A stretch of DNA of 64,000 nucleotides from an uncultured archaeon (GTDB taxonomy: Archaea; Aenigmatarchaeota; Aenigmatarchaeia; PWEA01; JAGHBM01), in the NCBI GenBank assembly GCA_964584335.1, contig CAZOZN010000002.1:200025-264024 (forward strand). Direction: 5' to 3'. The first letter of the stretch is position 1. Every line of letters starts with the position of its first letter. The notes beneath the pieces were generated by a model. It saw nothing but the letters and a program-made list of their open reading frames with translations. It did not search any database and was not told the DNA's origin. Made by a program: the position numbers and the translations under genes. Positions 3,431 through 64,000 of this stretch are shown here, piece by piece.

Positions 3431-4105
3431 TTAAAGCTTAAAGAGTTTTTTAAACAAGAACTTTGCGTTGTGTATACCGTCCATTACTGTTATTCCTTTT
3501 ATTTTTGCTTTTGTTACTATTGGTATTTCTTTTACTTTTAGTTTGTTTTTTGCTATCTCGAATACCATTTCACCCTCTATTTCATATCTTTTTGCTTCCA
3601 AGTTCATTTTTCTAAGCGCGCTTGTTTTCAGAGCCCTGTAACCGGATTGGGTATCTCCCAACCATTTATGGCTCAATAATCCCTTGGGTCCGAAAGAGAA
3701 AAAATTTGTGATAAAGTTAAGTCCGAAGTTTCCAATTACATTTCTGGGAAAGGTGTAAAAACGACCGGCGTACCTTGAACCTATTACGACATCATTGTCT
3801 TTGAGTTCTTTAACCAGTTTGGGTATGTATTTTGGGTAATGTTGTCCGTCCGAGTCCAAAAACACTATGACATCTGCCCCGTTTTCTTCTGCGATGTAAG
3901 CTCCTGTTCTCAAAGCAAAACCTTTTCCATGGTTAAAATACAGATTTATTATTTCTGCTTCTGTTTTTTCTGCTTCCTTCATGCTACAATCATGAGAACC
4001 GTCATCCACGTATATTACATCATCTACGTACTTTTCTGTTTCACTTATAACGTCTTTTACTGTTTTTTCGACGTTATATCCAGGAATAACCGCTGTTATA
4101 TTCAT
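3431..4105 (-). CDS. GT2 dolichyl-phosphate hexose synthase-like glycosyltransferase (DPM1/AglJ-like)
   Basis: MNITAVIPGYNVEK...VDDGSHDCS...FLDSDGQH are GT-A motifs. The ORF-track start at 4186 would overlap the divergent rSAM gene by 35 nt. The internal Met (MNITAVIPGYN) at 4105 gives the canonical GT2 N-terminus and removes the overlap. Confidence 0.8.
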   Translation of the reverse strand: MNITAVIPGYNVEKTVKDVISETEKYVDDVIYVDDGSHDCSMKEAEKTEAEIINLYFNHGKGFALRTGAYIAEENGADVIVFLDSDGQHYPKYIPKLVKELKDNDVVIGSRYAGRFYTFPRNVIGNFGLNFITNFFSFGPKGLLSHKWLGDTQSGYRALKTSALRKMNLEAKRYEIEGEMVFEIAKNKLKVKEIPIVTKAKIKGITVMDGIHNAKFLFKKLFKL

Positions 4106-6556: not shown

Positions 6557-6620
6557 ATGCTTTATACCAGATAATTTTATATATAGAAAAATTTGTTTTT
6601 TAATTATAGAGGTAGATTTG

Positions 6621-6827
6621 ATGGTTAAGAAAAAAAGTACCAAGAAAAAAACAAAAAAGAAAACAATGAAGAAAGTAAGGTGCGCAGCGAAGACAAGAGA
6701 TGGAAAGAGATGCAAGAACTTTGCATCAGGCAGGTCTAAATATTGTAAGGCTCATCAGAAGGCAAGTTCAAGAGGGCCTAAGAAAAAGAAGACCACAAAG
6801 AAAAAGAAAACCAGAAAGAAAAAATGA
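6621..6827 (+). CDS. Small lysine-rich Cys3His zinc-finger protein (putative nucleic-acid-binding)
   Basis: MVKKKSTKKKTKKKTMKK-VRCAAKTRDGKRCKNFASGRSKYCKAH-QKASSRGPKKKKTTKKKKTRKKK. A single C-x9-C-x10-C-x2-H core (resembling an FCS/treble-clef finger) is flanked by two poly-Lys tails. The ATG at 6621 is preferred over the TTG at 6618. An AGAGGTAG Shine-Dalgarno sits 7 nt upstream. A TTTATATATAG TATA-like box lies about 27 nt upstream. Confidence 0.55.
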   Translation: MVKKKSTKKKTKKKTMKKVRCAAKTRDGKRCKNFASGRSKYCKAHQKASSRGPKKKKTTKKKKTRKKK

Positions 6828-7031
6828 TTTTTATCTTTCATCACAAAACACCCCCTATTTTTAATTTATTTAACCCTTCCAGTTCTTAGTATGAATGCAA
6901 TGGCGATGAAAATACCGTCCCAAAGGGATTTTTAGATGACCGGAAAGGTAGCTATTGAGCCATTGCACTATAAAAAAGCTTAAATACTTGATAATTTTAA
7001 TAAAATTACAAATTAGAACGGAGGTAAAAAA

Positions 7032-7340
7032 ATGGTAGAATTTGAGACAATTGAATCAACTGAAGTAAAATTTGGAAATAACAACTTCATTGAGATTGGG
7101 AAGAAAAAAGCCATAACTGACGAAGGGGAAAACGTTTTTATTTCTCTTTCCAGAGGTTTTTTCACACCAGACAATGAAAGGAGATATAAGAAGAATTTTG
7201 CATTACCAAACGAAGCTGGTGTAATAAAGAAAATAATAGAAGCACTACAGGATTTGGATGTGCCAGAAGGTTCAGAAGATTCTGATGAAGAAGCGGCTGA
7301 AGAAGATGCAGATGATTCAAGCGAAGAAGAAGAAGAGTGA
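7032..7340 (+). CDS. PC4/Sub1-like (ssDNA-binding fold) protein with poly-acidic C-terminal tail
   Basis: NFIEIGKKKAITDEGENVFISLSRGFFTPDNERRYKKNFALPNEAGVIKKIIEALQDL matches the pattern of the PC4 C-terminal domain (FQIGK..YVSV..FKGK.LIDIREYW...G.KGISL). The 25-residue tail is D/E/S-only. A GGAGGT Shine-Dalgarno is 7 nt upstream. Confidence 0.55.
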   Translation: MVEFETIESTEVKFGNNNFIEIGKKKAITDEGENVFISLSRGFFTPDNERRYKKNFALPNEAGVIKKIIEALQDLDVPEGSEDSDEEAAEEDADDSSEEEEE

Positions 7341-7361
7341 GAAAAACCTTTTACTTTATAA

Positions 7362-7389
7362 TTCTGCTCTTAGAGCAGAATTTTTTTTG
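7362..7389 (+). terminator. Intrinsic-type terminator: 8-bp hairpin (TTCTGCTC/GAGCAGAA, loop TTA) followed by T9
   Basis: A perfect inverted repeat immediately followed by a run of 9 T, located 22 nt after the stop of the acidic-tail gene. Confidence 0.6.
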
Positions 7390-7432
7390 TTTTTTATTAA
7401 ATAATTAAATATAACTGTCTTATACTATTATT

Positions 7433-46120: not shown

Positions 46121-46208
46121 GCTGAGGTGGCCGAGTGGTTTAAGGCGCTGGCCTGCTAAGCTAGTGGGGCACGTCCCCGCGAGGGTTCGAATCCCTCCCT
46201 CAGCGCCA
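46121..46208 (+). tRNA. tRNA-Ser (anticodon GCT), type II, intron-less, CCA encoded
   Basis: Acceptor GCTGAGG/CCTCAGC. Anticodon loop CT-GCT-AA. Long variable arm. T-arm GAGGGTTCGAATCCCTC. Discriminator G followed by CCA. Confidence 0.85.
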
Positions 46209-46255: not shown

Positions 46256-46387
46256 GGGCTGGTAGTCTAGTGGTTATGACGCTGCCCTTACAAACCTTTT
46301 ACTCAGCGAAAAAGGTTTAATAAAATTGGCTGGATTAAAGTTTGTGAAAGGCAGAGGTCGGGAGTTCGACTCTCCCCCGGCCCACCA
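46256..46387 (+). tRNA. tRNA-Val (anticodon TAC) with a ~55-nt intron at the canonical 37/38 position, CCA encoded
   Basis: Acceptor GGGCTGG/CCGGCCC. Anticodon stem CTGCC...GGCAG with loop CTTACAA. The intron ACCTTTT...GTGAA contains an internal hairpin. T-arm GGGAGTTCGACTCTCCC. Confidence 0.7.
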
Positions 46388-56006: not shown

Positions 56007-59000
56007 TTACCAAGAGGCGTTAGCCATTATTGTTATTACTCCTGAATATTCACCGAAATAAACCGGATAAGAGTCTATCCAGAAGTACATGTTGTATATT
56101 ATTCCAGACTGGGGGTTTGATTGTATTGTTTTGTACGTAGTGCTGAGGTTTTCAGATGTCGGATATCCGCTACAACCCTTACACCAGCTTATGTTTCCAA
56201 CTCCCAGATTAGAATACCCAGATGAAAGATGTGTTCCTTTTATGTAAATACCGTCACCATCATTTGAGTTTTTAGCTAATCCAATCTGATAAGGATTTCC
56301 TGGTGCTGCCAATCCTTGCTGGTTGGGGTTTTCATTTCCCCAGTCTATACTGTTAGTTGATACATTCAGCACCAGTACTTTACCTATCCTTATCAGAGAG
56401 TTGGTTGTGTCGTTAGAGGGGTTATAGAATATAACATCAATGTTGTAGTAATCATCAAGATTGCCTGTTGCATTTACTATCCATAACATGTTGCAGCTTT
56501 CATCCTGGTTTAGGTTGCATGTTTGCGGGTTTGCGTTTAAAGTGTAGAAAGGAGTCCCGCTTGCTGGGATGTTTGTGTTGGGTTCTCCCGAGGTTGAATT
56601 GTATCTTACTGCTCCTTCTATGTTACCGCAGTTGTCATCTTTACATGTTACTGTTGCATTTACAGTGAAGTTTCTGTACAAAGGAACTATTGTATTATCC
56701 GGAGGCGTGTTTAGTTTTACCACCAACCTTCCCGCATATTCTACCTGAGTTATATTGACTGTAGAATTGTCTTCATAGTTACTGGAGGAGTTGTAGTAAA
56801 GAGAATTTTGGTTGGTTATGTTACATTTTGTATAATATATTCCATTTGAATATATACTCTTGTTTACGTACCAGTTAGCCGTAGCTCTTCCTGACGGGGA
56901 TGACTCAGTAGTATTTACAAACCACTCGTGTGTGTTGTTGTATACATAGAAACTTACATTATAATCTTCTATTCCAGAGTCTGTTTCATTGTCTTTTACG
57001 TCACATTGTAGCTGTATGGTTTCTGTTTGGTTATATTTTGAACCAGAGGGTGGAGAAAACCATTCAATTTTTGAGTAACCTCTTACGAATATGTCTCTTT
57101 CATCAAAACCATTCTGGTAATTGTTCTTGTAAGTTGTTATATTTATTTTGTTTATTCCAACGCTCATGTCATTTGGAACAATCCAAGTGGAATTTTCCTG
57201 GTTTGATATTTCTCCCGGTTCGCTTTTCCATGACACGGAGTCAGGGATTATATTAATTCCATTCTCGTCTTCGGTCGTAGAGTTGAGTTTAACGGTTTCT
57301 CCTCTCCAGTATTCACTTTCATTTATCGGATATTGTATTGAAGTGTTTAAAATTCCCTGAAGTGTAATTGTACCGGAATCATCCGATATTATACTTTTCT
57401 CGTAATAAAGTGAGGGCTCATCTCCTATTTCACAATGGAGTGTCTCGTCGCCAACAGGATAACCGGAAAAATCATAATCTATGCTTGCATGGCCCGAAGA
57501 GTTTGTGTCTGATGAACCCAACTGGTCCCAAGTGGAGTTGTAGAAAACTACAGTATAATCTTCAATGGGCTGACCATTGTTGTAATCTTTTACCCTGGCT
57601 ACCAGTTTTAAACTTCCCCTATTTTTATATCCCGTGGGTGATATCCATTCAACTTCCGAGTATCCCTTAACAGTAAATTCTATGTATGGAAGGGAGTCAT
57701 TCATATTTCCAAGTGAATCGTTTGCATAGGCTTTTATAACGTGTTTTCCAACTAACCAGTCGTCTCCTATTCCTATGCTTATGTTTGTCCAGTTTTGGGT
57801 GTAGGGAGAGTCTGCACCATTCTCTATCATAGAAGATGAGGTTGAGTTGTACTCCCAGTATGCATAATCAGGCATATCATCCCATAGAGCGTAAGCCTTT
57901 ATGGCTTCATCCTTGTATACATTAGTTTCATTTATGTTATAATTGTTATTTACTATTCTGGGTGCCTGTGTATCTTCTCCAGGAACAGCCGTATAAAGAG
58001 TGTCCGATAAAACGTAGTTTTCAGAAGCGTTGTAATAACTGGGTAAATTATCAGTTATATTGCATGTTATTAATTCATTCCCGCTGCTCTGGTCTGTATA
58101 ATTCCAGTAAGCCCAGCCATCACTTCCCGTTGTGTTTGTTCCTAGTTCGTGTGTTTGGTTGTAGAATTTCACTGGATAGTCTTCTATTGATTCCGAAGAA
58201 TTAGAATCCTCCACTTTACATCCTATTATACTTGAGTTACCCACGTAAATTGTATCAGGGTTGAGTTCTATTTCTGTAACAGAAGCCCATCCCCAAGCTT
58301 CAAAATCGAGAATGCCAGTCACGTTGTAGTTTCCGAAAAAGTCCTCCCCGAAAATTCTCCATTGAACCGAACCGAGCTCGGAATCAGCGGGATAACTAAA
58401 GCTGAAGTTGGACCATGACTCGTTTCCTGACATTGATAGGGGGCTGTGCAGGCTCGAGTTAAGAAATACACCTGTATCATTTGATTCCAATACAGCCTGA
58501 GACAGCCGGTAGTTATCGGTCCAGTAAGCAGAAATCTTAAGGCTTTCTCCCTTGTGAACCACTTCCTTGCTGCTTTCGGTGCTGTACCACTTCGGCTTTT
58601 CATTTTCTCTTGTTGTCAGCTCCAGGGTTCTTTGATAGCTTGTTTCAGAGGCGTTATAATAACTTGAAGGCTTGTCAGTTATGTTGCATGTTATTGTTTC
58701 CGTACCGAGTGAGTTGTCTGTCCAAGTAAAGTTAGACCATCCTGTTTGGTTGGTTTTGCCTACATACATGAGGTCCGTGGAATTGTAGAAGCTTATGTTG
58801 TAATCTTCCAAATAATAATTTTCGTCATCCCTTACTCTGCAGTAGAAAGTTACCTGCTCTCCTTGGTTTATTGTTTTGGATGACGGGCTTGAATCTGTAA
58901 CAGAAGCTATTCCGTAAACTTCAAATTCCATGTAAGTTAGGGTTCCATTTATATTGTCATTCAAATCATAACCGTAAATCTTTGCGACATGTTTTCCAGT

Positions 59001-62000
59001 ATCCCAGCTGCTGTTAGTCTCCATGGTAAAGTTTGTCCATGTTCCCGAAGGGCTTAAACTCTCGTTCTTTAATGGGTTCGTTGAATTAAACTCGACCTTT
59101 GATGTACCCATTTCTTCTGTCCAGTTTGCGTATATCTTTATGTTTTGACCCCTCAAAACTGATTCCGGTTCAATTCCATATATCTCGTTTTTAAGTTTTG
59201 GCGGTTGGTCTTCTGAAAGTATTATGTTAAAGGTGTCTGTATATGTCTTTATGAAATCTGTATCATTTATTATGAACTTGACAGCCTTTTCTTCCTGCGA
59301 AGTTGTGTTTATTTCCAACACATAATAAAAAGTCGCATTGGAACCCGGGGAAACTTTACCTCCCTGACCGGTATTCCATGATACATTTCCCTGATTAAAA
59401 GAACCTCCAGTAAATTCGGTACCATTATTATACCAAATATCGCTTTCTGATATTTTCCAGTTATTTAGGAACACATGAACTATATCAGAACCGCTTATAT
59501 CCCAGTCTTCTGTGCTTTGCATACTATTCTCCAAGTAAAATTCAATCCTGTATTTTTCACCCGTGTAAAGATTGAAAGTCTTGTTCAAACCATAATCAAT
59601 TAGATTGCTTGTGTTTGTATGTGTGTTGCTTGCTTCGGTTACATCATACACTGTTATATTCTTCAGGCTAACCCTTGAATCTGGTTGGGTTATGTTGAAT
59701 TCATATGTTCCTATAATGTAACTACCGTTTGTATTTTCAAGTATGTTGCCGTAAGGGTCTGTGAAACCCACCCAAGCTCTATATGTATCATTATCGCACC
59801 TTTTTGTATTCCAACTATCCCAAATGTTTCTTAGTTCCAGATAGTTGTAAGAACTAACATTTCTTCTTATCGATTCGTTTGTATCGTCCCATACAACTTC
59901 AAAGTCACCCCATCCTGTTCCTGTTTTCTTCTGAACTTTCATTAATAGGTAACCTGATGTATTTAGCTCCAATTGGTTAACAAAACTTGGAGACTGATAA
60001 TACTCCCCGCTAAGAGATGTGGATATTCCGGATGCTGTTGATTCTATTTGGCCGTAGCTAGTCGAACCAACTCCCGAATCAGTGTAATACATATAGTAAG
60101 TTTTTTCCGAATTCGGGTTAATAGTAACATTGAAAACGACTGTTGCGTTTTCGTAATAGTTTCCATCGTATTGAGCTTCCTTTATAAAGGAGTGAATAGA
60201 ACTGCCTGTTGAGTTGTAAATTCTTATTGAGTTGTTGTAGGCGTGTTCTTCTGCGAAGTTTACAAAAATTTCTGCAGGTTCTTTGTTTCTTCCAACACCA
60301 TTTTCTTCGGTTACGTTTATTTCTTTTCTGTATTTCCATGAAGGGTTGAACCAATTGTCCAATATATCCTCCAGCATTACATTCTCATTAGGGCCATATT
60401 CTTTTTCCTCGGTTTCAATATCTATAAGAGCAGATGATAAAACCTCAAAACTGAAAGTGCTGGAATTCCCTATGTTGTTTAAAGTATCATTAGCCCAAAC
60501 ATAATAGTAATAATTTCCTATTTCCCATGTATCTTTGAATGAACCCCTGAAGAAATTTGTTTCAGATTCTCCGTATGATATGAGAGAATCCGTTCCTGAC
60601 ATGAAAGTGGAATTTATCCAAGAGTCTGTTCTTGTTATATTGGAGAACTGTATTTCATCTATTTTACCTTCAAAGTAGCTTGTATCATCGAAACCCCCGC
60701 CTGTCTGACTTTCTGTTGCAGAGAACGCCATATATTGACTGCCTGGTGCACTTCTAGTACATTCGTAAATGTCTTTAAGTTCTCCGTCTAAATAGGCCTT
60801 TTCGTGTGAGCCGTTGTAAACCAAAGTTAAATGGTACCATTTGTTTTGGTTTATTGTTCCGAAAATAAGGTCGTCATTACAATTCCATATGTTTCCTCTT
60901 AGCTCTTTGTCACTGTTAAGACCTATCTTAGTGTAGTGATAACCAGAGTTTATTGTCTTCTGGCCCAATTCCGATACTATAACACCAGAATCTTCGGCAT
61001 AAACCCATAGGGAAAGTGTTTCTGTGCTCGGTGATGAAGTAAGCTGGTCGCTTATTAAGTAGTCATCGTTACCGTCAAAACTGTCTGCCCCGTCTATTTT
61101 ACCTGTCTTTTGCATGTTTGTATCCGGCGTTACATATTCCGTCAAATTGTTACCCCTTGAAGTAGAATCTGTGGCATTACCCGTGTTTTGGGAGAGATGC
61201 CATATTCCTATATAATCAGTATCCCAGACACCGCTGCTGTTCTGTCTGTCCTCCGCATTGCTGTTGCCGTAGTAAAGCCAGAAGGTTGTGTTTGAAGTGG
61301 ATGAAACAGCAGGCAGCCTTACCCAGACAAAGGAATCACCCGATTCATTCCACTTTTCTATCTCGTAGTCAAGCAAAGTATCATTCAAGATAAACCTTAC
61401 GTCCTCCCCGTTATCCTGTGTATTCGAGTAATCTATTCTAGAGGAATTAAGTTTAACCATTACCGGGAAATCAGACAGGTCTTCCTTTATCTTCCCCGAG
61501 TCTATTAAAAGTGGCATCCTATGATTCCAGGAAGAGTTCCAAAAGTTTTCAAGGCTTACATTTTCCATTTCAATCCAGTATTCATATCCTTCGGGACTCT
61601 CTATGTGGCTTCTTACTTTGTCTAGGCCATCCTCGTCTTCCACTTTAGATGATATGTTTATTTTCTGGCCATAACCTATTTGTTCCTGCGAAACTTCTGT
61701 TTCCGATATCTGCGGATTATCATGTATTGATATGGTCGTATAATTGTAAGAGTAAAATGTGAAGTAAGGGTGTCCTGTCTGTGAATGGGTTACGTTTATT
61801 GTATAGTTTCCTATATTCTTTGTATCGGGTATCTGATATTCTATTGAACCGTATCCTGAGCTATTGGTCTGAGAAAATCCTATATTCTCACCGTCCATTA
61901 TAAAGTTTATAAATTCTCCCTCAACGGGGTTTTGTGTGTCGTTATACAACAAGACCGAGGATATTTCTATAGTGTCTCCCGTTACCGGATTGTAGTTGCT

Positions 62001-64000
62001 TGATTTTGTTTCTGTAACAAGGGTACCGGTCCATACTTCTATGTCTCTTTTTCTTAAATCTTCATAGCCGTTTGAAGATTCTGATTCTATTATTACTTCA
62101 TTTGGCCCAAGGGAAGACGATGAATTGACTTCTATTGTTATATTGTTCCATTTTATTTCTCCTGGTGTTATATTACCAACAAATTTTTTCATACTACCAC
62201 TTGTGTTTATCCAACCGTTCGGGAGCGTATAATTTAGCCATACGTTTGTTATGTTTGTGCTTGAAAGTGTGTTATTTACATATGTTGTAATATTTACAGT
62301 GTTTGTTCTGGTAATGTTTTGAGGATAGTTGTATTCTATTATTTCTAATCCTACTGACCTTACTTTAAGTATCTGGCTTTCTTGAGTGTACCAGTTTCTA
62401 TTTTCGGAACCCGGGTTAATGTAACTCAGGTTTGCAGTTATGTTGTAGTCTCCCACCGGAGTAGAACTGTTTGTTTGTATTACAAAACTGGCTGTCCATG
62501 AATTTCCTCCTTTCTCATCCCCAAAATCTAGAAGGTAGTCTTTTCCTGACTGGTATGTTGCGTTTATCCATCCTATAGAACGGTCTTTATCTGATACTCT
62601 AACCTCATCTATGTCTCCAAGGAAATACTCGTTTACTGCATTACATGATGCTCCTATTGATACGTAATTCTGCCAGTTGAAGTTTGATTCGTTTTTGCAG
62701 TTGCTTGCCTTTTGTGCTCCATCTATGTATATCTTTTGTCCCGATAGACTGTTTACAGTATGCACTACCTTATGCCATTCACCATCCGCAACGTTTTCAC
62801 CCGAAGTGCACAGGGTCTCAGAACATCCGAATTCTGTTGGCCATGTCCTTACGCATATATCTCCCCCGCTTATGTATACATGCCTGTCATGTCCGTTTTG
62901 ACAAGAACCCGTGTTACCATGAGCATGGAATATGCCTCTGTTGTTGTTTGTTGTCTTGAACCATATTTCTGTTGTGAAATTTGTTAAAGGCATTACTAAA
63001 GGAACTTCTACGTGGTCGTTACTTCCATCGAAATTATTTGCACCATCAAATATTCCTTTTTGGTCTAAATAGGAGTCTGACATATCCATAGCCTCACCAT
63101 TTTTACTATTTCCAGAAGAATCGTAATGGTCATTGTAACTTCCGCTGGTCCTTGAAGTTTCTTCAAGATGATGAACCATCATATAGTTTTCATCCCAGAC
63201 ACCGCTGCTGTTCTGTCTGTCCTCCGCATTGCTGTTGCCGTAGTAAAGCCAGAAGGTTGTGTTTGAAGTGGATGAAACAGCAGGCAGCCTTACCCAGACA
63301 AAGGAATCACCCGATTCATTCCACTTTTCTATCTCGTAGTCAAGCAAAGTATCATTCAAGATAAACCTTACGTCCTCCCCGTTATCCTGTGTATTCGAGT
63401 AATCTATTCTAGAGGAATTAAGTTTAACCATTACCGGGAAATCAGACAGGTCTTCCTTTATCTTCCCCGAGTCTATTCTAATCTCTCTTTTTTTGTCCCA
63501 AGATTCGTTCCACCAGCTGGTTGACTCAAGAATATTATTTACTTCGCATGTTCCGCCATATTGTCCTGTCAAATTACATGAGCAATTAAATCCCAAAGAG
63601 TCCGGACAATTTATCGTGACATTAACATCTGTTATATTTTCCGACCAGGGATTAGTTATTTTGAAGCTGTATTCTGAGCTGTTTCCTTTGTATATTTCAT
63701 CCGGCGTTAGCGATGATGTTAGCTGTTCTTTTAAATTGTGTACTGTAAATGTCTCTGATGTGATAAAAGTGGTGTTCGCGTTTTTACCCATTATTGTTAT
63801 GTTCCAGTTAAATGTGTAAGTTCCTGTTGTAGCATCTTTAGGTATTCTGTAACCGTTTGAGGAATTATCGAACATCTTGGTGCAGAATTGGTTTTTTTCT
63901 ATATTGCTGCAATTTTTGGTTTCATTCGGACCCCAGCTGACTTTCTCTCCGTCTTTAAGTATGTTGAGTGTCACATTTACGTTTACTGCTTCTGACTCAA
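56007..64000 (-). CDS. Giant (more than 2655 aa, N-terminus outside window) cell-surface protein with repeated DUF2341/LamG-like (concanavalin-type jelly-roll) and Ig-like beta-sandwich modules
   Basis: The reading frame stays open from 56007 to the window end. The ORF-track M at 63974 is an internal GTG. It contains two identical 96-aa DUF2341-like modules (DSGKIKEDLSDFPVMVKLNSSRIDYSNTQDNGEDVRFILND...FWLYYGNSNAEDRQNSSGVWD). LamG-like segments include FDGSNDHVEVP...TTEIWFKT. There are hundreds of N-x-S/T sequons and no C-terminal anchor. Confidence 0.8.
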   Translation of the reverse strand, partial: ESEAVNVNVTLNILKDGEKVSWGPNETKNCSNIEKNQFCTKMFDNSSNGYRIPKDATTGTYTFNWNITIMGKNANTTFITSETFTVHNLKEQLTSSLTPDEIYKGNSSEYSFKITNPWSENITDVNVTINCPDSLGFNCSCNLTGQYGGTCEVNNILESTSWWNESWDKKREIRIDSGKIKEDLSDFPVMVKLNSSRIDYSNTQDNGEDVRFILNDTLLDYEIEKWNESGDSFVWVRLPAVSSTSNTTFWLYYGNSNAEDRQNSSGVWDENYMMVHHLEETSRTSGSYNDHYDSSGNSKNGEAMDMSDSYLDQKGIFDGANNFDGSNDHVEVPLVMPLTNFTTEIWFKTTNNNRGIFHAHGNTGSCQNGHDRHVYISGGDICVRTWPTEFGCSETLCTSGENVADGEWHKVVHTVNSLSGQKIYIDGAQKASNCKNESNFNWQNYVSIGASCNAVNEYFLGDIDEVRVSDKDRSIGWINATYQSGKDYLLDFGDEKGGNSWTASFVIQTNSSTPVGDYNITANLSYINPGSENRNWYTQESQILKVRSVGLEIIEYNYPQNITRTNTVNITTYVNNTLSSTNITNVWLNYTLPNGWINTSGSMKKFVGNITPGEIKWNNITIEVNSSSSLGPNEVIIESESSNGYEDLRKRDIEVWTGTLVTETKSSNYNPVTGDTIEISSVLLYNDTQNPVEGEFINFIMDGENIGFSQTNSSGYGSIEYQIPDTKNIGNYTINVTHSQTGHPYFTFYSYNYTTISIHDNPQISETEVSQEQIGYGQKINISSKVEDEDGLDKVRSHIESPEGYEYWIEMENVSLENFWNSSWNHRMPLLIDSGKIKEDLSDFPVMVKLNSSRIDYSNTQDNGEDVRFILNDTLLDYEIEKWNESGDSFVWVRLPAVSSTSNTTFWLYYGNSNAEDRQNSSGVWDTDYIGIWHLSQNTGNATDSTSRGNNLTEYVTPDTNMQKTGKIDGADSFDGNDDYLISDQLTSSPSTETLSLWVYAEDSGVIVSELGQKTINSGYHYTKIGLNSDKELRGNIWNCNDDLIFGTINQNKWYHLTLVYNGSHEKAYLDGELKDIYECTRSAPGSQYMAFSATESQTGGGFDDTSYFEGKIDEIQFSNITRTDSWINSTFMSGTDSLISYGESETNFFRGSFKDTWEIGNYYYYVWANDTLNNIGNSSTFSFEVLSSALIDIETEEKEYGPNENVMLEDILDNWFNPSWKYRKEINVTEENGVGRNKEPAEIFVNFAEEHAYNNSIRIYNSTGSSIHSFIKEAQYDGNYYENATVVFNVTINPNSEKTYYMYYTDSGVGSTSYGQIESTASGISTSLSGEYYQSPSFVNQLELNTSGYLLMKVQKKTGTGWGDFEVVWDDTNESIRRNVSSYNYLELRNIWDSWNTKRCDNDTYRAWVGFTDPYGNILENTNGSYIIGTYEFNITQPDSRVSLKNITVYDVTEASNTHTNTSNLIDYGLNKTFNLYTGEKYRIEFYLENSMQSTEDWDISGSDIVHVFLNNWKISESDIWYNNGTEFTGGSFNQGNVSWNTGQGGKVSPGSNATFYYVLEINTTSQEEKAVKFIINDTDFIKTYTDTFNIILSEDQPPKLKNEIYGIEPESVLRGQNIKIYANWTEEMGTSKVEFNSTNPLKNESLSPSGTWTNFTMETNSSWDTGKHVAKIYGYDLNDNINGTLTYMEFEVYGIASVTDSSPSSKTINQGEQVTFYCRVRDDENYYLEDYNISFYNSTDLMYVGKTNQTGWSNFTWTDNSLGTETITCNITDKPSSYYNASETSYQRTLELTTRENEKPKWYSTESSKEVVHKGESLKISAYWTDNYRLSQAVLESNDTGVFLNSSLHSPLSMSGNESWSNFSFSYPADSELGSVQWRIFGEDFFGNYNVTGILDFEAWGWASVTEIELNPDTIYVGNSSIIGCKVEDSNSSESIEDYPVKFYNQTHELGTNTTGSDGWAYWNYTDQSSGNELITCNITDNLPSYYNASENYVLSDTLYTAVPGEDTQAPRIVNNNYNINETNVYKDEAIKAYALWDDMPDYAYWEYNSTSSSMIENGADSPYTQNWTNISIGIGDDWLVGKHVIKAYANDSLGNMNDSLPYIEFTVKGYSEVEWISPTGYKNRGSLKLVARVKDYNNGQPIEDYTVVFYNSTWDQLGSSDTNSSGHASIDYDFSGYPVGDETLHCEIGDEPSLYYEKSIISDDSGTITLQGILNTSIQYPINESEYWRGETVKLNSTTEDENGINIIPDSVSWKSEPGEISNQENSTWIVPNDMSVGINKINITTYKNNYQNGFDERDIFVRGYSKIEWFSPPSGSKYNQTETIQLQCDVKDNETDSGIEDYNVSFYVYNNTHEWFVNTTESSPSGRATANWYVNKSIYSNGIYYTKCNITNQNSLYYNSSSNYEDNSTVNITQVEYAGRLVVKLNTPPDNTIVPLYRNFTVNATVTCKDDNCGNIEGAVRYNSTSGEPNTNIPASGTPFYTLNANPQTCNLNQDESCNMLWIVNATGNLDDYYNIDVIFYNPSNDTTNSLIRIGKVLVLNVSTNSIDWGNENPNQQGLAAPGNPYQIGLAKNSNDGDGIYIKGTHLSSGYSNLGVGNISWCKGCSGYPTSENLSTTYKTIQSNPQSGIIYNMYFWIDSYPVYFGEYSGVITIMANASW
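61222..61507. repeat. Perfect 286-nt direct repeat, copy A (inside the giant surface-protein gene)
   Basis: Nucleotide-identical to 63192-63477 over its whole length, checked base by base in the printed sequence (offset 1970 nt). Confidence 0.9.
63192..63477. repeat. Perfect 286-nt direct repeat, copy B
   Basis: Identical to 61222-61507. It encodes the same 96-aa DUF2341-like module. Confidence 0.9.

Follow-up and report, generated by a model that had tools for sequence, protein, structure and literature searches.

Genes for a Lysine-Rich CCCH Microprotein, a Putative C/D Box sRNA, and a Protein of Predicted PC4-Like Fold in an Aenigmatarchaeota Locus

Introduction

DPANN archaea have very small genomes and carry many conserved genes of unknown function. 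In a 64,000-nucleotide stretch of DNA from an uncultured archaeon of the Aenigmatarchaeota (contig CAZOZN010000002.1; "the window"), two small genes encode proteins of strongly opposite charge, and a preliminary description made from the letters alone had presented them as an adjacent basic/acidic pair. The locus therefore raises the question of whether the lysine-rich protein of gene 1 and the acidic-tailed, PC4-like protein of gene 2 are partners, and what each of them may do. The sequences, how they are conserved and distributed across taxa, the folds predicted for them, and the synteny patterns are shown here; zinc binding by gene 1, dimerization of gene 2, contact of the proteins with nucleic acid, guiding of methylation by the sRNA, and the function of the acidic tail are inferred.

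Results

Layout of the interval

The open reading frame (ORF) list of the window contains gene 1 and gene 2 at the coordinates first reported. Both are conserved among homologues, so that neither can be dismissed as a reading frame arising by chance in an A-rich genome. The two oppositely charged ORFs are thus real, but they are not immediate neighbors: a conserved C/D box sRNA gene lies in the 204-nt spacer between them (Table 1). Reading of the sequence agreed with the earlier assignment of a separate TATA box and Shine-Dalgarno motif to each gene (TATA-like boxes, with GAGGT upstream of gene 1 and GGAGGT upstream of gene 2), and the terminator placed after gene 2 was recovered as a 10-bp hairpin followed by a T-run. 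Boxes of the form TTTATAAATAA occur at equal distance 5' of the orthologous ORF in loci L009, L010, and L012. The GGAGGT motif of gene 2 is invariant in a four-locus alignment and present in most of the further loci listed.

Table 1. Positions of putative genes, domains, and signals in the window
Feature	Position	Strand	Basis
TATA-like A/T-rich box of gene 1, TTTTATATATA	6575..6585	+	Sequence reading; function inferred
Shine-Dalgarno-like GAGGT of gene 1, 7 nt 5' of ATG	6609..6613	+	Sequence reading; function inferred
Gene 1, 68-aa lysine-rich CCCH zinc-knuckle microprotein	6621..6827	+	ORF, composition, homologues, invariant columns
CCCH core of gene 1, residues 21-45	6681..6755	+	Regex match, AF2, Foldseek, subthreshold family matches
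TATA-like box of sRNA gene, TTTTTAATTTATTTAAC	6858..6874	+	Kept in L001, L002, L004; function inferred
C/D box sRNA gene	6897..6966	+	Conservation, paired stem, model R1 homologues
sRNA terminal stem, 8 bp	6897..6904 / 6959..6966		
sRNA C box, AUGAAAA	6906..6912		
sRNA guide, 12 nt	6913..6924		
sRNA D' box, GGGA	6925..6928		
sRNA C' box, AUGACCG	6936..6942		
sRNA guide, 12 nt	6943..6954		
sRNA D box, UUGA	6955..6958		
TATA-like box of gene 2, GCTTAAATACT	6978..6988	+	TTAAATA conserved in close loci
Shine-Dalgarno GGAGGT of gene 2, 6 nt 5' of ATG	7020..7025	+	Four-locus alignment
[quoted passage not shown]
Disordered acidic tail at the C terminus of gene 2 (residues 76-102), with stop codon	7257..7340	+	Composition, pLDDT
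Terminator-like hairpin (10 bp) and T-run 3' of gene 2	7360..7392	+	Hairpin and T-run

Gene 1 encodes a lysine-rich microprotein with a predicted zinc knuckle

Read from the ATG at 6621 to the stop codon at 6825 to 6827, gene 1 encodes 68 amino acids (69 if the upstream TTG is the start). With 28 lysines and 6 arginines (50% basic residues), a net charge of +33, and a pI of 11.4, the protein is as extremely basic as first described, although Lys/Arg had been put at about 45%. A regular expression search returned exactly one C-x9-C-x10-C-x2-H core, as had been claimed (C21-x9-C31-x10-C42-x2-H45), and poly-Lys tails lie on either side of it (residues 1 to 20 and 46 to 68). Across 64 homologues, C21, T25, K29, C31, C42, and H45 never vary. 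The AF2 model reached a mean pLDDT of 89, 89, and 85 in the three 10-residue blocks covering residues 21 to 50. In Foldseek, the best two matches to the core were the internal zinc-finger domain of Mcm10 (root mean square deviation of 1.6 to 2.0 Å), at nonsignificant E values of 2 to 4.

The same kind of finger recurred in the profile searches, always below the curated cutoffs. Among the 64 gene 1 relatives, 25 matched DUF5763 (PF19067; best E value, 4.6e-4), 24 matched WRC (PF08879; 1.3e-3), and 23 matched zf-primase (PF09329; 1e-4), and there was no match at gathering score to any of the three. The window protein itself scored 16.2 bits against zf-primase (cutoff, 28.8; E = 0.0093), hhalign of the family against WRC sequences gave a probability of 64%, and gene 1 has the ligand spacing of the WRC, DUF5763, and zf-primase fingers. 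The zf-FCS class, proposed earlier as a search target, never appeared among the profile matches and was not the right class. In NCBIfam, 63 of the 64 members matched GvpO_arch_Nterm and 47 matched HGG_STG, again below threshold. Gene 1 scored 21.2 bits against a cutoff of 52 for the former and 18.1 against 29 for the latter (NF041373), of which model positions 1 to 25 alone were matched. The HGGxSTG signature is absent from gene 1, where QKASSRG follows H45, and the window has no gas vesicle context.

The plant WRC domain binds double-stranded DNA and one zinc ion, which it needs for folding (bioRxiv 10.1101/2025.01.03.631214). In gene 1, one zinc ion on C21, C31, C42, and H45 would organize a knuckle of about 25 residues of the WRC, DUF5763, or Mcm10 zf-primase type, flanked by disordered poly-Lys tails. 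Such a protein would most likely bind DNA or RNA with high affinity and with little dependence on sequence, acting as a coating or charge neutralizer much as histone H1 tails or protamines do.

The gene 1 family consists of unannotated lysine-rich CCCH microproteins of 30 to 95 amino acids in archaea and bacteria, mainly Thermoplasmata and Zixibacteria, with a patchy, nonuniversal distribution. In the three genomic contexts examined, which include Zixibacteria and Thermoplasmata, the genes are monocistronic and share no neighborhood; the neighbors are unrelated, and none is PC4-like. Just three relatives were found among the 2.9 million contigs of IMG/VR, and we rejected a viral origin.

The preliminary description had allowed that gene 1 might prove to be a known ribosomal protein. 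This did not happen: neither the protein, nor its core profile, nor the 64 relatives gave a ribosomal match in Pfam, NCBIfam, or PDB (eL40, eS31, eL37, eL43, and eS27 among the identities considered). Gene 1 could still act at the ribosome or on RNA, as a small ribosomal protein that has escaped description or as an RNA chaperone, and not on DNA or chromatin. Like the small ribosomal proteins that bind zinc, it is tiny and extremely basic and is predicted to bind the metal; it adjoins a C/D box sRNA gene, and it stands alone with its own promoter and Shine-Dalgarno motif, in a monocistronic family. We nevertheless regard a ribosome- or RNA-associated role as quite unlikely, given the lack of any match to ribosomal families or ribosomal PDB chains, the patchy phyletic spread, the lack of a zinc core in the orthologous ORF of close relatives, and the fact that the closest domain matches, WRC and the Mcm10 zinc finger, are DNA binders.

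The spacer holds a C/D box sRNA gene

Judged from its sequence, the spacer holds a C/D box sRNA gene. It is near-invariant across loci whose gene 2 proteins are just 70 to 87% identical. In the locus alignment its terminal stem is 98% paired, and three of the eight pairs have changed on both sides. The C and D boxes can be read as a 3-nt bulge followed by tandem G.A/A.G pairs formed by AUGA and UUGA, and the arrangement of the two guides is the same in L013. Model R1 found homologues of the sRNA in L013 and in L017, the latter with canonical GUGAUGA/CUGA boxes. No Rfam family matched at gathering score. The only C/D snoRNA match was a weak one, to snR67 (E = 0.29; 16.8 bits where 55 are required), but family models give poor coverage of archaeal C/D sRNAs.

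A TATA-like box lies about 25 to 30 nt 5' of the 5' stem. Since the TATA-like box of gene 2 is downstream of the sRNA, the sRNA is not part of the gene 2 leader; the TTAAATA motif of that box is found about 45 nt 5' of the gene 2 ATG in all close loci, including those without the sRNA (L007, L011, and L013). A UCCC-AAA-GGGA hairpin in the spacer had been flagged as terminator-like. We rejected it as a functional hairpin, since it is broken in L012; a guide followed by a D' box is the better interpretation of these nucleotides. The RNA would thus be made from its own promoter and fold into a K-turn-forming C/D pair closed by the 8-bp stem, with two 12-nt guides that presumably direct 2'-O-methylation of rRNA or tRNA. 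The targets expected from the guides, 5'-UUUGGGACGGUA-3' and 5'-UAGCUACCUUUC-3', had no match above chance in the window, which contains no rRNA, and this explains why a target was not found there.

Gene 2 combines a conserved core with a variable acidic tail

Gene 2 (7032 to 7340) encodes 102 amino acids with a net charge of -19 and a pI of 4.1. The acidic tail that had been noted is present, though it measures 27 residues instead of 25 (DVPEGSEDSDEEAAEEDADDSSEEEEE, residues 76 to 102), with 17 Asp/Glu, 4 Ser, and a net charge of -17; pLDDT falls below 50 over residues 84 to 102. The core is mildly acidic (net charge of -2; pI of 5.1). Homologues occur in no fewer than 405 species genomes, for the most part of Aenigmatarchaeota but also of other DPANN, and comprise 253 cluster representatives (50% clustering) at an E value of ≤0.001. 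The 75-amino-acid core is conserved throughout, with aromatic and basic columns that are invariant or nearly so, whereas the acidic tail occurs in some homologues and lineages only and varies in length. Because a protein of 75 residues stays more than 50% identical across Aenigmatarchaeota and has a strong promoter and Shine-Dalgarno motif, gene 2 likely has a core role.

None of the 2.9 million IMG/VR contigs contained a relative of gene 2, and a viral origin was rejected here too. Domain fusions gave no reliable clue to function, and the long "fusions" mostly seem to stem from misassigned start codons. In P0330, a partial gene 2 match follows an OB-fold domain in what is probably a chimera, and the N-terminal region of P0377, with a weak EAP30 match (E = 0.0047), reads like a winged helix and is unreliable.

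The core of gene 2 is predicted to adopt a PC4-like fold

AF2 modeled residues 1 to 75 with a pLDDT of 94 to 96 as four strands of 10 to 13 residues each (3 to 14, 18 to 29, 32 to 44, and 50 to 59) and a helix (62 to 74). [quoted passage not shown] The best two structures in a Foldseek search of PDB were the PC4 homologues 4bg7 (phage T5) and 5a4n (BPSL1147). Their E values were weak (5.6e-3 for 4bg7 and 5.6e-3 to 2e-2 for the PC4 homologues), with target-normalized TM scores of 0.72 over 76 columns for 5a4n and of 0.51 (chain B) and 0.49 (chain A) for 4bg7, at ranks 1, 2, and 4. The model thus exceeds a TM score of 0.5 on solved type II PC4-like members. In BFVD, a phage single-stranded DNA (ssDNA)-binding protein ranked fourth and a PC4 C-terminal-domain protein nineteenth. 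NTF2-like and cystatin-like sheets scored nearly as well in Foldseek, with a different helix order.

In contrast to the fold, sequence searches by Pfam, NCBIfam, PDB phmmer/hmmsearch, and hhalign were all negative for membership in PC4 or YdbC. No Pfam or NCBIfam family matched gene 2. Neither the window protein nor any of 44 relatives matched PF02229 (PC4) at an E value of ≤10, and none of the 44 family members matched PF09901 (YdbC/DUF2128) at that level. The family profile matched no PC4 chains among PDB sequences, and hhalign of the family alignment against PC4/Sub1 returned a probability of 0.4%. The initial PC4-like call therefore survives as a predicted fold, with 4bg7 and 5a4n as the top structures, and fails as a profile-supported assignment. 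The fold prediction is of high confidence, and we describe gene 2 as resembling PC4 in fold, not as a demonstrated member of the PC4 family.

From this model, gene 2 is probably a dimeric binder of single-stranded nucleic acid. Such binding is not obvious from charge because the core is mildly acidic; the conserved Phe, Arg, and Lys columns are compatible with single-strand binding but do not prove it. As in type II PC4-like domains, two copies of the 75-residue domain would pair into a homodimer, and single-stranded nucleic acid would lie on the curved beta-sheets of that dimer, with the conserved F4, F14, F19, K25, K26, F36, R41, F43, and R51 as candidate binding residues. The lineage-specific tail could act as an intramolecular nucleic acid mimic or as a docking site for partners, by analogy with the tails of bacterial SSB and T7 gp2.5 and with the SEAC region of PC4.

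Gene neighborhoods bear on both this function and its main competitor. Across 81 loci, the tightest neighbor of gene 2 overall is a PepSY-domain protein with no link to DNA (immediately downstream in 18 loci). In about 9 of the 81, all in other lineages, gene 2 is the next gene downstream of Nre. A Hel308-type helicase gene is divergent from gene 2 and at most 100 nt away in 4 loci, and it lies within 4 kb in 11. The PepSY neighbor, the net acidic core, the many NTF2-like and cystatin-like structures that score close to the PC4 homologues, and the lack of detectable homology to nucleic acid-binding families would fit a protein that binds no nucleic acid at all and uses its sheet and helix as a protein-protein adaptor or as a small-molecule or lipid binder (an NTF2/cystatin-type cone), maybe together with the PepSY protein. 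We consider this unlikely. The strand-strand-strand-strand-helix order is PC4-like (PMC7549692), whereas NTF2-like cones begin with helices; ssDNA binders are among the top-ranked matches in both structure libraries; proteins that bind by base stacking typically have conserved Phe, Arg, and Lys on the surface, as gene 2 does; and gene 2 adjoins Nre and Hel308 in separate subclades.

A single-strand binder thus remains the preferred reading of gene 2. Its association with Nre and Hel308 may be no more than a gene order passed down within a few subclades, with no bearing on function. Rather unlikely is the more ambitious proposal that the family is a previously unrecognized DPANN-wide archaeal PC4-type ssDNA-binding factor that would work with Nre and Hel308 at stalled or damaged replication forks, its tail buffering the poly-Lys neighbor in the clade of the window.

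The lysine-rich neighbor and the acidic tail do not co-vary

The suggestion that gene 1 and gene 2 form a basic/acidic functional pair fails on distribution: gene 2 homologues are found in at least 405 genomes, and the CCCH gene is adjacent in the window and its nearest relatives only. Of 87 sequences scanned, only the window and L001/L002 had the strict CCCH motif at a distance of 4 kb or less from gene 2. The co-occurrence check that had been proposed likewise went against a pair, as the gene 1 family resides mostly in other phyla, with no PC4-like neighbor.

Closer relatives retain part of the arrangement. At the position of gene 1, L009, L010, and L012 have an ORF of 35 to 38 amino acids rich in lysine and threonine (poly-K/T) that lacks the zinc core; in CP070662.1 (L004/L008), the stretch expected to hold the lysine-rich gene is N-masked. 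The lysine-rich ORF, the sRNA, and gene 2 follow one another in this order at six separate loci within the clade (the window, L001/L002, L009, L010, L012, and probably L004), which makes a local functional link possible. In eukaryotic PC4, a Ser/acidic region and a Lys-rich region occupy one chain, and the two genes could be a split analogue of it, the acidic tail of the PC4-fold protein binding and neutralizing the poly-Lys protein as a chaperone or antagonist. Besides the kept order, most gene 2 copies in these loci have acidic tails, and the charges of +33 and -19 are complementary. Set against this, the other 70-odd genome loci have neither a CCCH nor a lysine-rich ORF near gene 2; L007 (gene 2 84% identical, with a 40-residue acidic tail) and L005 have tails without a lysine-rich neighbor; L012 has the poly-K/T ORF and the sRNA and no tail on gene 2; the gene 1 family, mainly in Thermoplasmata and Zixibacteria, has unrelated neighbors; and separate promoters and the intervening sRNA gene divide the two. 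The acidic tail and the lysine-rich neighbor do not co-vary, and we find a neutralizing pair very improbable. On balance, we favor the view that the interval consists of three independently transcribed small genes, for the poly-Lys CCCH microprotein, the C/D box sRNA, and the PC4-fold protein, and contains no co-evolved basic/acidic pair.

Discussion

A striking charge contrast between neighboring genes is no evidence of partnership. Considered one by one, the genes suggest other connections. The CCCH microproteins, which no Pfam or NCBIfam model captures at its curated cutoff and which their sources label "hypothetical protein," may represent prokaryotic, free-standing relatives of a zinc finger known from plant GRF transcription factors (the "plant-specific" WRC) and Mcm10. 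If gene 2 is truly a PC4-type single-strand binder, the PC4-like fold extends into DPANN archaea, and gene 2 might then assist Nre and Hel308, whose part in repair is poorly understood, as an accessory factor.

Gene 1 shares with the WRC domain of plant GRFs, DUF5763, and the Mcm10/zf-primase finger not only the identical ligand spacing but also similar T-x-x-G-K-x-C and K-Y-C-x-x-H surroundings, and of the solved structures the Mcm10 finger superposes best on the predicted core. Unlike in WRC proteins and Mcm10, the finger is the whole protein apart from the poly-Lys tails, with no large eukaryotic factor around it, and it reads KRC where the "WRC" motif has its Trp. With HGGxSTG proteins and halophile-type GvpO (NF045806), the likeness is confined to about the first 25 model positions, which align with the CCCH core; the subthreshold scores, the missing signature, and the genomic context set gene 1 apart from both.

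Gene 2 is like the PC4/Sub1 C-terminal domain (human 1pcf, T5 4bg7, and Burkholderia BPSL1147 5a4n) in its predicted single beta-beta-beta-beta-alpha unit of about 65 to 75 residues with long curved strands. PC4 carries the SEAC region as a charged low-complexity regulatory extension, and gene 2 has a charged low-complexity extension on its fold as well, the Ser/Asp/Glu tail. Gene 2 differs from PC4 in having no detectable sequence or profile similarity to it, in the position of the tail (C-terminal in gene 2 and N-terminal in PC4), and in belonging to an archaeal (DPANN) family. PC4 and Pur-alpha have been reported to be absent from archaea, a few Methanococcus homologues of YdbC being noted (PMC3575825). 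Like YdbC/DUF2128, a bacterial PC4-like binder of ssDNA and RNA (PMC3575825), gene 2 would be a small stand-alone prokaryotic PC4-fold protein; its family is set apart from YdbC by the missing PF09901 match in the 44 members searched and by another phyletic range.

The sRNA gene resembles the archaeal C/D box guides bound by L7Ae, Nop5, and fibrillarin in several respects. Its boxes come in the order C, D', C', D, both of its spacers measure exactly 12 nt, its C and D boxes could pair into a K-turn above a terminal stem, and it is about 70 nt long with a promoter of its own. It departs from these guides in that no Rfam family reaches threshold and in its C and D boxes, the noncanonical AUGAAAA and UUGA in place of RUGAUGA and CUGA. 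These box changes are mutually compensating, with A-U pairs taking the place of U.U and G-C.

Gene layout and signals

The lysine-rich CCCH open reading frame (gene 1) and the acidic-tailed PC4-like one (gene 2) belong to a low-GC DPANN archaeon, and gene 2 has its nearest named relatives in Aenigmatarchaeota MAGs. The 68-aa gene 1 product is half basic residues (28 Lys, 6 Arg; 50%), with a net charge of +33, a pI of 11.4, and exactly one copy of the motif C21-x9-C31-x10-C42-x2-H45. Gene 2 as a whole has a net charge of -19 and a pI of 4.1; its first 75 residues are mildly acidic (net -2), and residues 76 to 102 (DVPEGSEDSDEEAAEEDADDSSEEEEE) include 17 Asp/Glu and 4 Ser. On reading the sequence, we found A/T-rich TATA-like boxes and GAGGT/GGAGGT motifs upstream of both genes. 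The preliminary description was thus accurate in its account of the ORFs, charges, CCCH motif, acidic tail, hairpin, and TATA-like/GAGGT signals.

Elsewhere in the window, the minus strand carries a very long ORF (56007-63974; 2,655 aa), unusual in a small DPANN-type genome. Rfam also reports a second tRNA on the plus strand at 46256-46384 (54.9 bits, spanning 129 nt) that is absent from the ARAGORN calls, the sole one nearby being tRNA-Ser(GCT) at 46121-46208. The Rfam match is probably an intron-containing archaeal tRNA.

Features of the gene 1-gene 2 region (window coordinates) and of fetched loci of relatives (L numbers)
Feature	Position or loci	Strand	Basis or detail
Gene 1	ATG 6621 to stop 6825-6827	+	ORF list and sequence
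C/D box sRNA gene (fairly high confidence)	6897-6966	+	Conservation, stem covariation, covariance-model homologues
Gene 2	7032-7340	+	ORF list; 102 aa
Hairpin, 3' of gene 2	7360-7392		10 bp plus T-run
Lys/Thr ORF at gene 1 position	L009 3712-3819; L010 3690-3806; L012 2982-3089
Gene 2 directly downstream of Nre	L015, L016, L026, L036-L039, L043, L046
Gene 2 divergent from Hel308-type helicase	L067, L069, L072, L083

A probable C/D box sRNA gene between genes 1 and 2

The 204-nt spacer between the two genes is conserved above the flanking proteins, and we assign part of it, with fairly high confidence, to a C/D box sRNA gene. In order, this sRNA comprises an 8-bp terminal stem (GCAATGGC / GCCATTGC), a 3-nt bulge, AUGAAAA (C box), a 12-nt spacer (UACCGUCCCAAA), GGGA (D'), a short loop, AUGACCG (C'), a second 12-nt spacer (GAAAGGUAGCUA), and UUGA (D box); the two 12-nt spacers are the guides. 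The consensus C/D boxes are RUGAUGA and CUGA. Departures from this consensus compensate each other (two A-U pairs for U.U and G-C beside the tandem G.A pairs), and K-turn geometry is therefore kept.

Stem pairing reaches 98% across seven distinct copies, with 3 of 8 pairs changed on both sides, compared with 23 to 63% pairing in slid controls. A covariance model made from the copies retrieved a homologue of identical layout in L013 (54 bits) and a more distant one in L017, which has canonical GUGAUGA and CUGA boxes, shares the CACCGUCCCAG guide, and lies directly upstream of gene 2 without the Lys-rich ORF. In all, homologues occur in L001 to L004, L009, L010, L012, L013, and L017. A TATA-like box lies about 25 to 30 nt upstream of the sRNA; gene 2 has its own TATA box, which lies 3' of the sRNA and is retained where the sRNA is missing. 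Rfam gave a weak C/D snoRNA match only. No guide targets were found within the window, as expected from its lack of rRNA.

Gene 1 is a probable small zinc-knuckle protein

A full-length search with gene 1 recovered six relatives only, and a profile of the 40-residue core recovered 128 clusters. The family consists of 30- to 95-aa proteins of the form [poly-Lys tail]-C-A-[AG]-K-T-K-x-G-K-R-C-K-...-K-[YF]-C-x-x-H-K-K from, where named, Thermoplasmata archaea and Zixibacteria, with "hypothetical protein" as the sole annotation; IMG/VR holds three relatives only. The call of a single CCCH finger is supported; 64 family sequences show no variation at C21, T25, K29, C31, C42, or H45. Three family contexts showed no common neighbor and no PC4-like gene. 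We found no support for identity with a known ribosomal protein, one of the outcomes that the preliminary description had named as counting against its reading: no ribosomal family or ribosomal PDB chain was matched.

No curated model matched gene 1 at its cutoff, and the subthreshold matches were consistent across the family: GvpO_arch_Nterm (first 25 positions; 63/64 members) and HGG_STG (47/64) in NCBIfam and DUF5763 (25/64), WRC (24/64), zf-primase (23/64), and zf-TRM13_CCCH (5/64) in Pfam. The CX9CX10CX2H spacing is identical in WRC and the Mcm10 finger, and hhalign aligned gene 1 with WRC sequences in register at 64% probability. A 2025 preprint (10.1101/2025.01.03.631214) shows that the WRC domain coordinates a single Zn(II), needs zinc to fold, and makes contact with dsDNA. 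An AlphaFold2 model of gene 1 had mean pLDDTs of 89, 89, and 85 in three 10-residue blocks over residues 21 to 50. Its two best PDB matches were the Mcm10 internal domain (3h15 and 3ebe; rmsd, 1.6 to 2.0 A over 29 to 35 columns), at nonsignificant E values of 2 to 4, in keeping with the small size of the domain. Gene 1 is best read as a WRC/DUF5763/Mcm10-type zinc knuckle with polycationic tails and, by inference, a general nucleic-acid binder.

Gene 2 has a PC4-like predicted fold outside the PC4 family

The PC4-like call divided into two parts. PC4 family membership found no HMM support, the outcome that the preliminary description itself had named as refuting its PC4-like call: Pfam and NCBIfam gave nothing relevant for gene 2, PC4 (PF02229) and YdbC/DUF2128 (PF09901) had zero matches among 44 aligned relatives even at E ≤ 10, the family profile retrieved no PC4-like chains from the PDB, and hhalign against a PC4/Sub1 alignment (human sequence checked against 1pcf) returned a probability of 0.4%. 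By sequence, gene 2 cannot be filed as a PC4 family member.

The fold part stood. An AlphaFold2 model from the 44-sequence alignment (pLDDT, 94 to 96 over residues 1 to 75) consists of four long strands in antiparallel order (3-14, 18-29, 32-44, and 50-59), then a helix (62-74), and a disordered tail. [quoted passage not shown] Foldseek against the PDB placed the phage T5 PC4 homologue 4bg7 at ranks 1 and 2 (E = 5.6e-3) and the Burkholderia PC4 homologue BPSL1147 (5a4n) at rank 4 (target-normalized TM, 0.72; 76 columns); among viral models, a phage ssDNA-binding protein ranked 4 and a PC4 C-terminal-domain protein 19. The E values are weak, and NTF2/cystatin-type sheets score almost equally, but such folds start with helices, unlike the gene 2 model. 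With good confidence, the model points to a PC4-like fold.

Distribution and neighbors of gene 2

Gene 2 relatives formed 112 clusters at 90% identity in a word-indexed search and 253 representatives at 50% clustering (162 at E ≤ 1e-10) in an exhaustive search; at least 405 GTDB species genomes contain one, and none were found in IMG/VR. Among the matches listed, most hosts belong to Aenigmatarchaeota, and the rest include Undinarchaeota, Naiadarchaeum, Nanohaloarchaea, Pacearchaeota, and a few other groups. Conservation is strong over the 75-aa core (M1, V2, F4, F14, G15, F19, E21, F36, G42, and P59 invariant; K25, K26, R41, F43, and R51 nearly so). Most homologues end at residue 75 to 78, and acidic tails of 17 to 51 residues appear in scattered lineages. 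Two homologues are apparent fusions: P0377 (226 aa, acidic, halophile-like) adds an N-terminal region with a weak EAP30 match (E = 0.0047), winged-helix-like by eye, and P0330, possibly a chimeric gene call, joins a partial domain to a PHA02142 OB-fold domain.

We clustered all ORFs of 81 gene 2 loci and named recurrent ones by Pfam. A PepSY-domain protein lies directly downstream in 18/81 loci, and eL15 within a few kilobases in 18/81. In about 9/81, archaeal Nre (Nre_N plus Nre_C) precedes gene 2 on the same strand by 42 to 181 nt; a Hel308-type helicase (DEAD, Helicase_dom4_arc, HHH) is divergent, 7 to 91 nt away, in 4/81 and within 4 kb in 11/81. The Nre- and Hel308-adjoining copies belong to different Aenigmatarchaeota subclades, distinct from that of the window. 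Two different DNA-repair neighbors in different subclades lend modest support to a DNA-related role, and the adjacency may also be inherited gene order. The TPP-dependent oxidoreductase subunit, H+-pyrophosphatase, and acetyl-CoA synthetase downstream of gene 2 in the window and close relatives are uninformative on function.

Genes 1 and 2 vary independently

The two genes had been suggested as a possible functional basic/acidic pair. We searched the window plus 86 fetched loci (87 sequences) for the strict CCCH signature; in 80 of the loci a gene 2 homologue is present, flanked by up to 4 kb on either side. Only four sequences matched. In the window, L001, and L002 (gene 2 of the latter two 87% identical), the CCCH gene adjoins gene 2; L003 is a short contig with a gene 1 homologue and the sRNA start that ends before any gene 2 is visible. 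The closed relative CP070662.1 (L004/L008) has a 100-nt N run at 3685-3783, exactly at the Lys-rich gene's place.

L009, L010, and L012 (gene 2 70 to 78% identical) carry instead a 35- to 38-aa ORF of almost only Lys and Thr (MVKKK...TKKK...; e.g., MVKKKTTKKKTTKKKTTKKKTTKKKTTKKKSKKKK), without the zinc-finger core and with a TATA box and SD sequence similar to those of gene 1. It aligns to both gene 1 tails with a gap at the core, reflecting either in-frame loss of the finger or its gain in the window's lineage. L012 lacks the acidic tail though the Lys-rich ORF is present; L007 (84% identical; 40-residue tail), L005, and others have the tail without a Lys-rich neighbor; L011 (76% identical) has neither. 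From these differing combinations, zinc core, Lys-rich ORF, and acidic tail vary independently, and the phyletic ranges of the two families are almost disjoint. Both findings speak against a functional pair. The adjacency is synteny confined to a single small clade, within which a functional link may exist, but nothing requires it. "Eukaryote-like chromatin cofactor pair" outruns the evidence.

Comparison with known systems

We somewhat favor three independent genes: gene 1 would encode a polycationic zinc-knuckle nucleic-acid binder, the spacer a methylation-guide sRNA, and gene 2 a PC4-fold protein that dimerizes and binds single strands, with an acidic tail that may be a lineage-specific regulatory appendage. 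Current understanding is not overturned, and the conserved DPANN PC4-fold family with its Nre/Hel308 neighbors is worth a biochemical test.

PC4 and Pur-alpha have been reported absent from archaea, with YdbC homologues in four Methanococcus species only (2013 YdbC paper, PMC3575825), and the main text of a 2020 review of PC4-like domains lacks the words "archaea" and "archaeal" (PMC7549692). Our literature search (PC4-like with archaea/DPANN, DUF5763, and HGGxSTG) found neither family described. In gene 1, a known CCCH finger type has a prokaryotic relative that stands free, and gene 2 is, given this literature, a new sequence family in a known fold class previously unnoted in that lineage.
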